Positions 51,940 through 61,705 of a stretch of DNA of 64,000 nucleotides are shown piece after piece. Every line of letters begins with the position of its first letter. The first letter of the stretch is position 1. Below the pieces are notes generated by a model. That model had not been told where the DNA came from. It ran no database searches and worked only from the letters and a program-made list of their open reading frames with translations. The stretch is from Escherichia phage vB_EcoP-CHD5UKE1. Made by a program: the position numbers and the translations under genes. The stretch is from sequence record NC_070989.1; one strand, written 5' to 3'.

Positions 51940-52143
51940 TTAGTAGAACGAACGAATTTCATCCCACACTTGTTCCTGTTCTTTCCTATAAAAAGAAAGT
52001 TGGGTCTTGAACATCTCCACTGATGATTCAAAGTTTTTGGTTTGTGCAGCTTCAACGAAACGTTCATGTCGGTTGATTTTGCACCGTAGCATTAAATACT
52101 TGGCTTCAAGTCTCCGAAGAGCCTGCCTTTTCTCAAGATTCAC
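51940..52143 (-). CDS. hypothetical protein (67 aa)
   Basis: ORF between primase-helicase and the modification cassette. Confidence 0.4.
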   Translation of the reverse strand: MNLEKRQALRRLEAKYLMLRCKINRHERFVEAAQTKNFESSVEMFKTQLSFYRKEQEQVWDEIRSFY

Positions 52144-52552
52144 TTTTCAGATACTCTGACCAGTCGCCAGATTCAACCAGAACATCTTGTTCTTCGTCGA
52201 TGTGATAAATCCAAGCGATAACAGTTTTACCTGAGTCCAGCTTAACAGCAATCTGAGTACGCTGATAGAAGCTGTCTTCAGGGCTACGTTTGTTGTAACC
52301 TTCCAGACGGTCATACGGACCTTCCAGACCTGCTTTGTCAGTAGCAAACACTTCTACACGAACAGGCTTATTGTTATTACTGTGTGCGAGAGAGATGCTC
52401 GGGAAGTAGGAACCACCGTAACGGAACAGATCGAAGTTATCTTCAGTCCAACCTTCGCCAATAGACTTAGCACCAGCTCGATCATTAACTAAATAGTTAG
52501 CTTGACCACGACGAAGAGAACCATAAGTTGCTACGTAAATTACTTCTGACAT
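52133..52552 (-). CDS. gamma-glutamyl cyclotransferase-like (AIG2/GGCT fold) protein (139 aa)
   Basis: N-terminal YVATYGSLRRG (YGSL motif) and downstream acidic residue typical of GGCT/AIG2. Confidence 0.55.
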   Translation of the reverse strand: MSEVIYVATYGSLRRGQANYLVNDRAGAKSIGEGWTEDNFDLFRYGGSYFPSISLAHSNNNKPVRVEVFATDKAGLEGPYDRLEGYNKRSPEDSFYQRTQIAVKLDSGKTVIAWIYHIDEEQDVLVESGDWSEYLKSES

Positions 52553-52553
52553 T

Positions 52554-52763
52554 TTAAATACCTTTCCAGTCTTTCATGATGTTTTCAATGTAAGCACACT
52601 GCTGATCAGTGGCTCCTGTTACAAACACTTCTAACCCCAACTGCTCACAGAAGGGATTAAGAATCAATATTCTGGTTTGTCCATACGAGTGATGCTCTCG
52701 GTAGATAACACACCCAGCATCCCATACAGAGTCAATGGCTTTACTCAATCTTTCATGTTTCAT
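52554..52763 (-). CDS. hypothetical protein (69 aa)
   Basis: ORF in cassette. Confidence 0.4.
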   Translation of the reverse strand: MKHERLSKAIDSVWDAGCVIYREHHSYGQTRILILNPFCEQLGLEVFVTGATDQQCAYIENIMKDWKGI

Positions 52764-52816
52764 AAAACCTCCAGCTTATCCGAACTAGCCTCCTCTTTCG
52801 AAGAGGCTAAAGCAGA

Positions 52817-53002
52817 TTACTCTGTAATAAAGATTTTGATTACACCGCAGATTGCTGCACTCTCAAATACTGCAACAGCTTCACTTCCCTGAAAGAAGGC
52901 CACTTTGCCGTCAGAGAAGTTAAACATGTCAGCATCTAGGTCCATAGCTCGCATATCACCAGCGTCGTTAGTATCTTTAAACAGAACTTTATACTTATTC
53001 AC
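52817..53002 (-). CDS. hypothetical protein (61 aa)
   Basis: ORF in cassette. Confidence 0.35.
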   Translation of the reverse strand: MNKYKVLFKDTNDAGDMRAMDLDADMFNFSDGKVAFFQGSEAVAVFESAAICGVIKIFITE

Positions 53003-58718: not shown

Positions 58719-58727
58719 GATAACCTC

Positions 58728-59534
58728 TTATGCTACCTGAAGGAGTTTGATCTGCTGGTCAGCTTCTTTAACGTTGTTCCCGTTAATGATTTCATGAAGC
58801 TTCTCAATCGGAAGGCGAGAGTGCAATGCCATCAGAGTGGACATATCACACTGCTGAACAACCTTGTCAACCTGATCGTAAACAAACTTACGGTTTTCAC
58901 GATCACTAATCCAGAAGTTAGACAGAGAACGGTACTCAATACCATAGTCTTTATAACGGATTGCAGATGCTTTACCGTAGAGTTCTTTACGGCGAGTATC
59001 TTTGTCCATAATTACTGCTGGGAGAGACAGGAAGTAGTCACACAGCACACCCAGCATCATCTGAGTTTGCAGAGTGATATCCAAAGCACCAACTACGCCA
59101 AGATGTACGTGACCACCGGCAGTACGAAGTCCCTTATTCTGAGAAGTCGGGGATGGGTTTTTCTGACCAGTGAAGGCGTTGAAATCAGGAGTGCACCCGA
59201 AGATGAACGCTGATTCATTAAAGGTCTTCATCTCTTCTTCAGTGAAGATGTGAGAGCTAACACCCGGAGCTGTTTCCATGTCCAGTTTGTTCAGGACATT
59301 ATTGGTGAGATCGATACCACGTTGCATGTTATCGTTAAACGCTTCAAAACCGCTCTGTGGGTCAATATCAAACTCAGCCAGTACGTTGTCCTCTTGGAGA
59401 CGAACATCCTTAGCCAGAGCGATCTTATCGTCCTTAGAGCAGCCTAATAAACCGGCTACAGAAGTGATGATACCATTGCTAGTACGAACAAACATTTCAG
59501 GGTCAGAGCCGATAAGGAATTTGCGCTTAGTCAT
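58728..59534 (-). CDS. second amidoligase-like protein (268 aa)
   Basis: LIGSDPEMFV and GGHVHLGV blocks, variant of the same ligase signature. Confidence 0.45.
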   Translation of the reverse strand: MTKRKFLIGSDPEMFVRTSNGIITSVAGLLGCSKDDKIALAKDVRLQEDNVLAEFDIDPQSGFEAFNDNMQRGIDLTNNVLNKLDMETAPGVSSHIFTEEEMKTFNESAFIFGCTPDFNAFTGQKNPSPTSQNKGLRTAGGHVHLGVVGALDITLQTQMMLGVLCDYFLSLPAVIMDKDTRRKELYGKASAIRYKDYGIEYRSLSNFWISDRENRKFVYDQVDKVVQQCDMSTLMALHSRLPIEKLHEIINGNNVKEADQQIKLLQVA

Positions 59535-60498
59535 TGTAATACTCCACTAGTTCAGAAAAGAGAGATGAGATTGTGTTACCAACTTCTTCAAGAGTAAGAC
59601 CGGAATCTGCTCCAGTTCTTTGAATCAGTCGGGCTGTAAAGTTTTGTACTGTAATGTTTCCCAACTTGTCGTCTATTGCTTCACGTTTGTGACCATAACA
59701 GTTGGACCAGAGTCTTAACCACTCTGACATTGTTTCATACTCGTCCGGGTCTTGATCTTTAGCACGAGCAAATCTTCGTAAGGCATCTTGGTTATGGTTA
59801 CGAACATAACCATTCTCGTTGTCGCCAACACCGAAGGGGTTTTGAACCCATACTTGCTTCGTGTATTCATCAGAGTCTACAACCAAAGGAAGGAATGCTG
59901 CTGCTGACATATTGTTGTTAATAACAATAGAGGTGCTCTCACTACTCCCATTGGCTCTTCCTCGTTGAGACCATCCACCGAAGAAGTCACGACCCAACCC
60001 AGCTAACACTAGAGCGATGCCGATGCGTTTACGCTTCAGCCACTCTTCCCTGTCTTCAATTCCTTCTGCTAGGAAATCCATTCCACGATATTGCCCTTCC
60101 AGAATACTACGAAAGAGCATAAGTCCTGTGAAGATCTGATCTGCTGGATGCTCACGAAGGTTGACAGCAACACTATTCGCTGAAGTGATCGTAAATACGT
60201 CACGATAGCAAGACATGGAGTTCATAATGTCTGCTGTTTCAACCAAGTTCTTTTCAATATCAGATGCAACATGACCGTGAAAAGAGTGAGTCCAGTAATT
60301 CAACATCTCCAGTTGCAAGTTGATATCACGGTTGAAGCGACGATAACGCCCTTCTTCCGAGATAACTTCACCATTAATGTCATTTACACACTGGCCTTGC
60401 ATGTAGTTGTGGATACCGAAGCACCCACGACCTAAGAACTTCTGTTCCCCTAAATCCTGTTGAAGATTAAGAGGTACGATCGTTGTGGAGATTGACAT
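59527..60498 (-). CDS. hypothetical protein (323 aa) within the ligase cassette
   Basis: ORF; no recognisable motif. Confidence 0.45.
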   Translation of the reverse strand: MSISTTIVPLNLQQDLGEQKFLGRGCFGIHNYMQGQCVNDINGEVISEEGRYRRFNRDINLQLEMLNYWTHSFHGHVASDIEKNLVETADIMNSMSCYRDVFTITSANSVAVNLREHPADQIFTGLMLFRSILEGQYRGMDFLAEGIEDREEWLKRKRIGIALVLAGLGRDFFGGWSQRGRANGSSESTSIVINNNMSAAAFLPLVVDSDEYTKQVWVQNPFGVGDNENGYVRNHNQDALRRFARAKDQDPDEYETMSEWLRLWSNCYGHKREAIDDKLGNITVQNFTARLIQRTGADSGLTLEEVGNTISSLFSELVEYYND

Positions 60499-60508
60499 AA
60501 CTAACCTT

Positions 60509-61705
60509 TTATTTTCCTAAAAATAATCCGCTCATAATACCATCCCACTCAGAGGACGGAATCACTGAATACTCCGAACTTTGGTCCAGAGTTCCGCTAC
60601 TGAATCGCTGAACAATATTATAAATATTGAACATATCTTTAGTCTCAGCGCGATAAGCGTAGACTAATCTGTCAGCTGTTCTTTCATCTTTAGATACCCG
60701 ACGAGCAAAGGTAACCAGAAGATTGTCACCTTTGAGTATTTCTGACTCATCTTTTACTAGATCAGGGTGCATAACCGGCAAGAACATTGAGTTGTTCACT
60801 CGTAACTCTGCTGTTTCATCATTCTCATAATGAATCCATTTAAAATCTTCATCACGAAAGTGACCGCATCCATCTCTGTATGACTGTTGACGCCAAGGCA
60901 CTTGAAATGCTTCAGCGTATTTATCAGCCATGCCAACCGTAAATAGTGACGCTGGGAAAATACAAGCATCCCAATCGTTACCAACCAGAGTTGCTTTCGT
61001 TTCGCCCAAGAGGTTAGTGTAAGTGCTAACCATTCGTGAGTAAACATAAGCCTGAAGGATTGTCCAGCCTTCAACCAACCATTTATGGAGGAAGGTTTCA
61101 ACTTGACTCTCTTCATCTTCACAATAGAAGGTTCGGTCTAACATCAAATAGAACAGACAACGATCAGCAGGGATATTCTCAGTTGCTACCCCCATAAAAC
61201 CTTTATCGTGCCAGCGTAAACAGGAGGGACGATCTTTGTCCACAAATGCTTCCATAGCTTCCAGTACAGCACGAGGTGTGGTTCGGTGTTCAGGGTTTTT
61301 GTCGTTCCAACGTTCGATGTTATTTTTAGGAGGTGTGTCTTCATCTTCATATGAACACCAACTCAAAGCTTCAGCTACGTGCTTTTCATCACGCCAACGT
61401 CTAAAGCCTAACATCTTCATATGAGTTCCAGAGTTCCAGATATGCTTAATACTGCTCATATCCATCTCTCGACTTAATAAGAACTCTTCCCCATCAGCAC
61501 TACGAACGTTAGCATCTTCATGCCACACTCGAACGTGCATGTTCCATCCATGAGTTGCCTCATACATGTTAGGGTCGAAGTAGTCATCATCTTCGTCGTC
61601 TTCATCAACGCCACCATTATAGTTGCGAAGCTGAAGGAACCCATAACAAGGAGGGTTGACCGTTAAAACATTACCTTCAGTATCTTCTAATGTTACTGGA
61701 AACAT
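60509..61705 (-). CDS. hypothetical acidic protein (398 aa) within the ligase cassette
   Basis: ORF; no recognisable motif. Confidence 0.45.
   Translation of the reverse strand: MFPVTLEDTEGNVLTVNPPCYGFLQLRNYNGGVDEDDEDDDYFDPNMYEATHGWNMHVRVWHEDANVRSADGEEFLLSREMDMSSIKHIWNSGTHMKMLGFRRWRDEKHVAEALSWCSYEDEDTPPKNNIERWNDKNPEHRTTPRAVLEAMEAFVDKDRPSCLRWHDKGFMGVATENIPADRCLFYLMLDRTFYCEDEESQVETFLHKWLVEGWTILQAYVYSRMVSTYTNLLGETKATLVGNDWDACIFPASLFTVGMADKYAEAFQVPWRQQSYRDGCGHFRDEDFKWIHYENDETAELRVNNSMFLPVMHPDLVKDESEILKGDNLLVTFARRVSKDERTADRLVYAYRAETKDMFNIYNIVQRFSSGTLDQSSEYSVIPSSEWDGIMSGLFLGK

Follow-up and report, generated by a model that had tools for sequence, protein, structure and literature searches.

The phiEco32-type amidoligase cassette of an Escherichia podophage and the gamma-glutamyl chemistry that it may carry out

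What might a phage assemble with three ATP-dependent ligases, a glutamine amidotransferase and a gamma-glutamyl cyclotransferase (GGCT), all encoded within one interval? The question is raised by positions 52133-61705 of a 64,000-nucleotide (nt) stretch, hereafter the window, of Escherichia phage vB_EcoP-CHD5UKE1 (NC_070989.1). A sequence-only reading had described this interval as a multi-ligase cassette and a candidate hypermodification or peptide-tagging system, and had leaned towards DNA bases as its substrate. The first part of that reading, a system that forms amide bonds with several ligases, holds; the lean towards DNA hypermodification does not. We find that the cassette is already known, being a rediscovery of the published phiEco32-type amidoligase cluster. 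As to its function, our leading but tentative interpretation is an early-expressed phage pathway that would assemble amide bonds on a substrate other than DNA, with a small molecule or a cytoplasmic envelope precursor as the most likely acceptor.

To judge from its sequence, the source phage is a Kuravirus-type (Gordonclarkvirinae) podophage. In nucleotide comparison, 97 phage records match the interval: Escherichia phage LorandFenyves_Bas91 aligns over its full length at 98.7% identity, and vB_EcoP_SU10 and phiEco32 are 97-98% identical to it. We compared the encoded proteins with Pfam, phrog, NCBIfam and the Protein Data Bank (PDB). The GGCT-like protein, the ATP-grasp ligase, the class-II glutamine amidotransferase (GATase, or GAT-II) and the two ligases of glutamine synthetase (GS) fold were all found where they had been placed, on the minus strand, and none was reassigned to an unrelated family. 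All cassette genes lie on that strand, packed as tightly as had been reported, with gaps of 1-11 nt or overlaps of 4-20 nt and one exception, a 79-nt gap at 56922-57000. The features of the phiEco32-type module are PF14395, PF12224, an ATP-grasp ligase, a GAT-II with an N-terminal Cys, an AIG2/GGCT protein and a conserved neighbourhood, and every one of them is present here. The two are the same system, with the same five enzyme families and an orthologue of phi32_86, and nothing in the sequence differs.

The cassette had been offered as a new candidate; it turns out to be an established prediction of comparative genomics. The title of PF14395 is 'Phage phiEco32-like COOH.NH2 ligase-type 2', and the annotation of phage RIO-1 names phi32_86 as the founding member of that family. 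According to papers that cite them, Iyer, Abhiman, Burroughs and Aravind (2009, Mol Biosyst 5:1636) described the cluster as a module that putatively modifies peptidoglycan, predicted three unusual peptide linkages and proposed that it prevents superinfection or prepares lysis; in these accounts, action on peptidoglycan or the cell wall stands as a prediction only. Genome papers on LUZ24-like phages, phage tf, TC6 and OM43 phages list the same genes, and the module has been recorded in LUZ24-like, Zobellviridae, 7-11 and Pa11-like phages. Full-text literature searches, mostly aimed at this point, found no biochemical or genetic study of the module, in agreement with the earlier remark that no phage example has been characterized biochemically. 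The present analysis adds a corrected GATase gene model, an extended core that takes in a 205-amino-acid (aa) protein and DUF7195, a probable pair of paralogues of novel fold (323 and 398 aa) and the alternation of GGCT with Peptidase_C26. In the account of Iyer et al. (2009), as relayed by the citing papers, the 205-aa protein and DUF7195 go unmentioned, as do the 323/398-aa pair, the alternation and the ATT with which the GATase gene starts.

Each of the three ligases could be assigned to a family. The Pfam matches of the ATP-grasp protein all fall below the cut-off; nevertheless, phrog_2599 (E=1e-187), nine ATP-grasp models of NCBIfam (MptN and RimK leading, Ddl included) and the solved RimK-type alpha-L-glutamate ligases 7qys and 7qyr agree, and the assignment is therefore unambiguous. 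Ddl chains also appear among its PDB matches, and its C-terminal 82 aa match a separate family, phrog_20552. Amidoligase_2 scores 33.7 bits against PF12224 (cut-off 22) and E=1e-158 against phrog_7469. Nine divergent homologues keep its residues E31/E33/E35, D50, R54, E58, R91, H95, H97, R130, E186 and R188 invariant. The COOH-NH2 ligase scores 34 bits against PF14395 (cut-off 25) and E=3e-118 against phrog_3815, and eight divergent homologues share 44 invariant columns, D11, E13, E54, H142, H144, R193, E200 and R202 among them. Its family profile gave no meaningful match in the PDB.

The GATase required a new gene model. A mechanical list of open reading frames (ORFs) had given it 563 aa and a TTG start; we replace this ORF with the 676-aa gene listed in Table 1. 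The frame opens at 56921 with ATT followed by TGT, the codon of the catalytic Cys (residue 2). A TAG stands two codons upstream, and AGGTGGA lies eight bases 5' of the ATT. The resulting protein, with the Met-Cys start typical of N-terminal nucleophile (Ntn) amidotransferases, agrees with the Bas91 annotation. From the truncated ORF we obtained weak Pfam matches to GATase_6/7, and from the full protein matches to the N-terminal domains of GlmS, PurF, AsnB and EgtC in NCBIfam. Its class-II domain (about residues 1-230) is followed by a linker, a beta-rich middle domain and a Cys-rich zinc-ribbon tail, and both the MCG N-terminus and the CxxC motifs are kept in the alignment. No synthase domain was recognized; beyond the GAT domain there are only the beta-rich domain and the zinc ribbons.

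How widely is this start kept? The Met/Ile-Cys N-terminus is found in 82 of 89 GATase genes examined; the codon before the Cys is ATT in 11 loci and ATG in the 71 others. The ATT loci include the window (56919-56921) and loci L008, L010, L013, L014, L022 and L056; those checked belong to Gordonclarkvirinae, save for L056, an unrelated contig. That so rare a start is conserved suggests translational control of the GATase. Two hairpins, GTGCCTC-TGATAAA-GGGGCAC and AAGGGT-TTA-CCCTT, fall in the 79-nt gap between Amidoligase_2 and GATase, just 5' of the Shine-Dalgarno sequence and the ATT, and could be a regulatory element. In the SU10 GenBank record, the GATase (63.8 kDa) seems to begin at the TTG of the truncated form.

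Is the cassette a coherent unit outside the Kuraviruses? A tblastn search of 50,697 phage records matched Amidoligase_2 in 300, the COOH-NH2 ligase in 305 and the ATP-grasp ligase in 312, and these are nearly identical sets of genomes. The split by genus is the same for all three: Pseudomonas (about 120) and Escherichia (about 92), then Vibrio, Aeromonas, Proteus, Salmonella and Cronobacter. An IMG/VR scan with the COOH-NH2 ligase alignment found at least 584 viral contigs. We analyzed 90 loci, in which the COOH-NH2 ligase and Amidoligase_2 are each present in 89, GAT-II in 87, the 205-aa protein in 85 and the ATP-grasp ligase in 81. These block members, present in 81-89 of the loci, keep a fixed order: COOH-NH2 ligase, 205-aa protein, Amidoligase_2, GATase, (DUF7195), ATP-grasp. 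The same order is seen in LUZ24 (gp14-gp22), Salmonella 7-11, Proteus Privateer, Aeromonas LAh_8, Salinivibrio CW02, Pseudoalteromonas RIO-1 and 80 IMG/VR loci. Recurring in phages this diverse, the arrangement lies far beyond chance. Genes for a helicase and a DNA polymerase come next in most loci with enough downstream sequence. Upstream of the cassette, 7-11, Privateer and a divergent contig (L002 121-2684, L007 and L010 362-2889) carry ribose-phosphate pyrophosphokinase, NAMPT and TerC/TerD-type genes; the window has no proteins of these types.

The best available clue to the chemistry comes from the enzyme that varies. The GGACT/AIG2 gene of the window scores 63.4 bits against PF06094 (cut-off 22.8) and E=1.6e-44 against phrog_2520, and its product carries the YGSL and E motifs. 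In 32 of the 90 loci, a 210-aa protein of the Peptidase_C26/class-I GATase type is encoded upstream of the COOH-NH2 ligase. Peptidase_C26 is a family of gamma-glutamyl hydrolases such as PuuD. Perhaps the two enzymes replace each other? We limited the count to the 61 loci with adequate flanks: GGCT stands alone in 32 and Peptidase_C26 alone in 24, no locus carries both and five carry neither, the last including the 7-11/Privateer type, in which GGCT lies more than 10 kb away. The two enzymes are unrelated, their common activity is cleavage of gamma-glutamyl amides, and they occupy the same niche. Hence, their mutual exclusion argues that a gamma-glutamyl group is attached and later removed, and it points to that removal as a required step.

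Expression data come from SU10 (98.2% identical), where the cassette lies within the early gene block (coding sequences 69-125). Mass spectrometry (MS) of polyethylene glycol-concentrated SU10 lysate detected the ATP-grasp ligase, the GATase, YtfP/GGCT and the 23.3-kDa gp86, orthologous to the 205-aa protein. The phage-sigma promoter motif TAATGTATA has no coding-strand occurrence in or just upstream of the cassette, and generic promoter and terminator scans stayed at or below background.

How could these activities be joined in one pathway? The COOH-NH2 ligase, Amidoligase_2 and the RimK-like ATP-grasp enzyme would each form one amide bond at the expense of ATP, and at least one of the three bonds would be a gamma-glutamyl linkage to an amine. 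The stand-alone GATase may pass glutamine-derived ammonia to a GS-fold ligase for amidation of a carboxylate, or it may act as an amidohydrolase. In the last step the gamma-glutamyl group would be taken off, here by GGACT with release of 5-oxoproline and in the sister clade by the Peptidase_C26 hydrolase. Such a 'ligate, elaborate, deprotect' logic would resemble the gamma-glutamyl protecting group of butirosin or the metabolism of gamma-glutamyl amines. The acceptor could be, for example, a peptidoglycan peptide, in line with the proposal of Iyer et al. (2009) as the citing papers give it.

The observations that argue for this pathway are the enzyme families with their invariant catalytic-type residues and motifs, the fixed order of the block, the GGCT/Peptidase_C26 exclusion, and the early class and MS detection in SU10; the earlier published prediction points the same way. 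From these we infer the order of the steps, the part played by the gamma-glutamyl group and the nature of the acceptor. Several points weigh on the other side. The cassette encodes no envelope-targeted or recognizably peptidoglycan-binding protein, and the role of the GATase is split between ammonia donor and hydrolase. The alternation of GGCT with Peptidase_C26 tracks two clades, so it may reflect a single displacement event. Finally, the zinc ribbons, the C-terminal extensions and three conserved domain-less proteins would fit a macromolecular target equally well.

Known pathways offer partial parallels. In butirosin synthesis, the ATP-grasp enzyme BtrJ and the AIG2/GGACT-fold cyclotransferase BtrG add a gamma-glutamyl group and later remove it as 5-oxoproline. 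The cassette shares with butirosin, at the level of fold families, the presence of an ATP-grasp ligase and an AIG2/GGACT-fold cyclotransferase in one pathway; it differs in having no acyl-carrier protein, pyridoxal phosphate-dependent decarboxylase or acyltransferase, and in adding two GS-fold ligases and a GAT-II. PuuA/PuuD serve putrescine use, GshA/GshB/ChaC glutathione turnover and EgtA/EgtC ergothioneine synthesis; PuuD belongs to Peptidase_C26, EgtC is a GAT-II, GshB an ATP-grasp enzyme and ChaC an enzyme of GGCT fold. Here the likeness lies in the Peptidase_C26 protein of the sister clade and in EgtC among the GATase matches. It is confined to fold families and sub-threshold scores, however, and none of these pathways combines all five enzyme types.

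What of the proteins that lack a recognizable domain? The three large proteins in which no motif had been noticed (205, 323 and 398 aa) are indeed without a match in Pfam, NCBIfam, PADLOC or PDB sequences, and their family profiles gave no meaningful match when compared with the PDB. The 205-aa protein is encoded between the COOH-NH2 ligase and Amidoligase_2 wherever it is present, and its family amounts to only 64 clusters among 1.84 billion representative proteins. Its residues D6, Y10, K110, G111 and K160 are invariant; its AlphaFold2 model has a pLDDT of 56 and is poor exactly in the most conserved segment. The 398-aa protein has many invariant polar residues, and its confident structural model matches no fold in the PDB. 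Comparisons with hhalign tied the 323-aa family to three others: a 308-aa protein that marine contigs encode upstream of the ligase (probability 93.7%), the counterpart in 7-11/Privateer (95.8%) and the 398-aa family (82.7%). The last value was obtained with larger alignments; the first, small alignments had given 0.1%, with only a PAD(R/K)xxFxxLMxxR motif in common. Because of these profile links, the 323- and 398-aa proteins are probably paralogues within a phage-only family. This family is missing from the Peptidase_C26 clade and is therefore accessory; no sequence link to it was found for LUZ24 gp14 and gp15. DUF7195 (PF23825) occupies the same position in LUZ24 (gp20), 7-11, Privateer and the divergent contig L010.

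These proteins bear on an alternative, which is that the ligases modify a protein. In the manner of RimK, PafA or TTLL enzymes, they would tag a protein of the host or the phage with glutamate or short peptides; the 205-aa protein would be acceptor, adaptor or scaffold, and GGCT/Peptidase_C26 together with GAT-II would reverse or edit the tag. We judge this proposal, its parts taken jointly, to be unlikely. The nearest relatives of the ATP-grasp enzyme are indeed RimK-type protein glutamate ligases, and PafA, which ligates Pup, is among the enzymes of GS/GCS fold. Translation of the 205-aa protein is coupled to that of Amidoligase_2, the protein offers the invariant K110 and K160, and the low confidence of its most conserved segment in the model is what might be expected if that segment folded on a partner. 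The zinc ribbon and the other non-catalytic extensions could be docking domains; however, such extensions are lineage-specific, and LUZ24 and CW02, whose versions are minimal, lack them. For the GGACT family, epsilon-(gamma-glutamyl)-lysine is the known substrate, yet GGACT acts on free, not protein-bound, gamma-glutamyl-amines. We also found no small tag protein that keeps Gly-Gly or Glu/Gln at its C-terminus, since the C-termini of both DUF7195 and the 205-aa protein vary.

The peptide-tagging candidate of the sequence-only reading therefore falls short in one respect: no dedicated ubiquitin- or Pup-like tag is evident. We considered DUF7195 for this role. Its alignment has no conserved C-terminal Gly, Glu or Gln, the variable C-terminus rules it out as a ubiquitin- or Pup-like tag, and its matches to UBL_AVO1 are non-significant.

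Could DNA be the substrate after all? An amino acid or peptide would then be placed on a base of the phage DNA after replication, and this would explain the resistance of Gordonclarkvirinae to restriction. We regard such hypermodification as very unlikely. In the BASEL work, Gordonclarkvirinae are unusually resistant to restriction systems, which counts against a pathway confined to non-DNA substrates and leaves room for a DNA-directed role. The BASEL authors point to another candidate, however, a dCTP deaminase together with a 472-aa 'nucleotidyltransferase', which they suspect of being behind a DNA modification. In the window the 472-aa ORF (48209-49627, minus strand) lies between the exonuclease subunit and the dCTP-deaminase-like gene. 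It is annotated elsewhere as 'nucleotidyltransferase' or CCA-adding-like, and it has no Pfam or PDB sequence match.

Site frequencies speak on both sides. We compared restriction-site counts with a maximal-order Markov expectation over the whole 64 kb. Sites for EcoRI, EcoRV, EcoKI and EcoP1I occur at normal frequency (about 12, 35, 9 and 104), which counts in favor of a DNA substrate. In contrast, CCWGG occurs 6 times against 161 expected, PstI (0/31), SacI (0/29), NcoI (0/15) and SphI (0/10) sites are absent, and GATC stands at 0.44 of expectation. Such strong, selective avoidance of sites implies DNA that nucleases can reach. CACGTG and CGTACG are likewise missing from the window, the expected numbers for zero-count sites ranging from 10 to 31. 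The normal frequency of EcoRI, EcoRV, EcoP1I and EcoKI sites is odd for phages that are reported to resist those systems broadly. Of 16 restriction enzymes, 11 cut the genomic DNA of the module-carrying Bruynoghevirus U17; for a Kuravirus, no in vitro restriction data were found in the literature that we looked at.

Enzymes that would provide a handle on a base are also missing. Neither dUMP/dCMP hydroxymethylase nor TET/JBP, 5-HMUDK, aGPT-Pplase, DpdA or Mom was found, and ThyX with the dCTP-deaminase-like protein amounts to an ordinary supply of dTTP. Pfam families of hydroxymethylases, TET/JBP enzymes, DNA kinases, pyrophosphorylases and transglycosylases did not appear in 35 window ORFs, all of them above the smallest sizes and outside the structural region of the plus strand. 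Among representatives of the 79 neighbour clusters that recur in the 90 loci there was likewise no DNA-base-modifying enzyme, although a very divergent member could escape Pfam. What Pfam did match in the window were ThyX (PF02511), the dCTP-deaminase-like protein (PF22769), PhoH, a family-A polymerase and an exonuclease, together with Macro and SLOG domains. Nearby there is only one P-loop protein, the PhoH-like ATPase (PF02562), and it is this that had been taken for a 'P-loop kinase'. Thymidine hypermodification clusters employ 5-HMUDK, aGPT-Pplase and enzymes dependent on pyridoxal phosphate (Lee et al. 2018 and 2021). Like the cassette, they are phage-encoded, and they append amino acids or amines, as the cassette might. 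In some metagenomic clusters and viral contigs, Amidoligase/GATase Pfam matches occur together with thymidine-hypermodification genes, a point in favor of a DNA substrate. Unlike these clusters, the scanned window ORFs and the related loci showed no kinase, pyrophosphorylase, hydroxymethylase or TET/JBP.

Does the location of the cassette argue for DNA? It adjoins replication genes in all lineages examined, and its placement had been read as a hint that DNA bases are the substrate. This neighbourhood is ancestry common to the whole podophage supergroup, and it is therefore no evidence for a DNA substrate. The placement itself also needs correction: the cassette does not lie between the primase-helicase and the nucleotide-metabolism genes. 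It is upstream of the primase-helicase gene (50123-51913), and the dCTP-deaminase-like gene (47666-48199), ThyX (44896-45552) and other nucleotide genes are found beyond the replication genes as seen from the cassette. A last variant, in which DNA is handled by the 323/398-aa pair, by the 205-aa protein or by the GATase through its zinc-ribbon tail and a post-replicative amino-acid or peptide adduct arises by chemistry unrelated to the 5-hmU/5-hmC routes, is highly improbable; if true, that adduct would be the cause of the restriction resistance of Gordonclarkvirinae.

The remaining features of the interval (Table 1) and its surroundings touch the proposed amide-bond pathway less directly. The gp79 homologue lies inside the interval yet is no part of the ligase chemistry; it is wedged between the GGCT and ATP-grasp genes in only 11 of the 90 loci, all Gordonclarkvirinae-type. 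The accounts of gp79 in PMC8948821 and PMC12276001 give its function as an RNA-polymerase binder that displaces sigma70. The defence and anti-defence models of PADLOC gave zero matches for 10 proteins, eight of them from the cassette. Elsewhere in the window, a Macro-domain protein (34174-34695, minus strand; PF01661, E=3e-10) is encoded near a SLOG-family YAcAr protein (33118-33510, minus strand), whose PF10686 match falls just below the cut-off. As domains that bind or remove ADP-ribose, the two could be counter-defence genes. A 199-aa ORF (46092-46691, minus strand) that is annotated elsewhere as DNA-binding has a ferritin-like match (PF00210, 31 bits). Two separate genes encode the family-A DNA polymerase, one for the 3'-5' exonuclease subunit (49572-50129, minus strand) by the primase-helicase and one for the polymerase domain (39164-41008, minus strand) about 8.5 kb downstream.

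Table 1. Genes in and next to the amidoligase cassette (positions in the window)
Feature	Position	Strand	Basis or remark
GGACT/AIG2-like gamma-glutamyl(amine) cyclotransferase, YtfP/UPF0131 type, 139 aa	52133-52552	-	PF06094, phrog_2520
Small ORF, 69 aa, probably a passenger	52554-52763	-	Homologues only in Bas91 and 7-11; no Pfam match
Small ORF, 61 aa, probably a passenger	52817-53002	-	Homologues only in Gordonclarkvirinae; no Pfam match
gp79 homologue, RNA-polymerase factor displacing sigma70	52999-53247	-	PDB 9m7y_G, E=1.1e-51, 82/82 residues
RimK-like ATP-grasp ligase, core about residues 1-300, C-terminal extension of about 100 aa	53254-54447	-	phrog_2599, NCBIfam, PDB
Small ORF, 74 aa, confined to Gordonclarkvirinae	54450-54674	-	11/90 loci; no significant Pfam match
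DUF7195 protein, 77 aa	54655-54888	-	PF23825, 61.9 bits; directly downstream of GATase gene
Class-II (Ntn) GATase, 676 aa, ATT start	54891-56921	-	phrog_4736, E=3e-201; NCBIfam N-terminal domains
Amidoligase_2, GS/GCS fold, 367 aa, C-terminal extension	57001-58104	-	PF12224, phrog_7469
205-aa core protein	58101-58718	-	85/90 loci; 4-nt overlap with Amidoligase_2 start
COOH-NH2 ligase type 2 (GCS2-like), 268 aa, phi32_86 orthologue	58728-59534	-	PF14395, phrog_3815
323-aa accessory protein, probable paralogue of 398-aa protein	59527-60498	-	No family match; hhalign links
398-aa protein, confident model, no known fold	60509-61705	-	Predicted structure
120-aa ORF, membership uncertain	61717-62079	-	11/90 loci, Gordonclarkvirinae only, always directly upstream of 398-aa gene; no family match

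What would it mean to know the substrate of the proposed pathway? The module is present in about 0.6% of sequenced phage isolates, including Kuravirus and LUZ24-like phages (Bruynoghevirus), and also in abundant marine podophages; Bruynogheviruses are already used in clinical phage cocktails. An early-expressed unit, the cassette accounts for about 12% of a 77-kb genome. The alternation of GGCT with Peptidase_C26 makes its chemistry testable: a mutant without the gamma-glutamyl-removing enzyme should pile up a gamma-glutamylated intermediate that MS can identify. Identification of the substrate would give functions to two Pfam ligase families, one DUF and one fold family without a solved relative, and it would show a new route by which phages rewire host chemistry, be it that of the cell envelope, of metabolites or of proteins.

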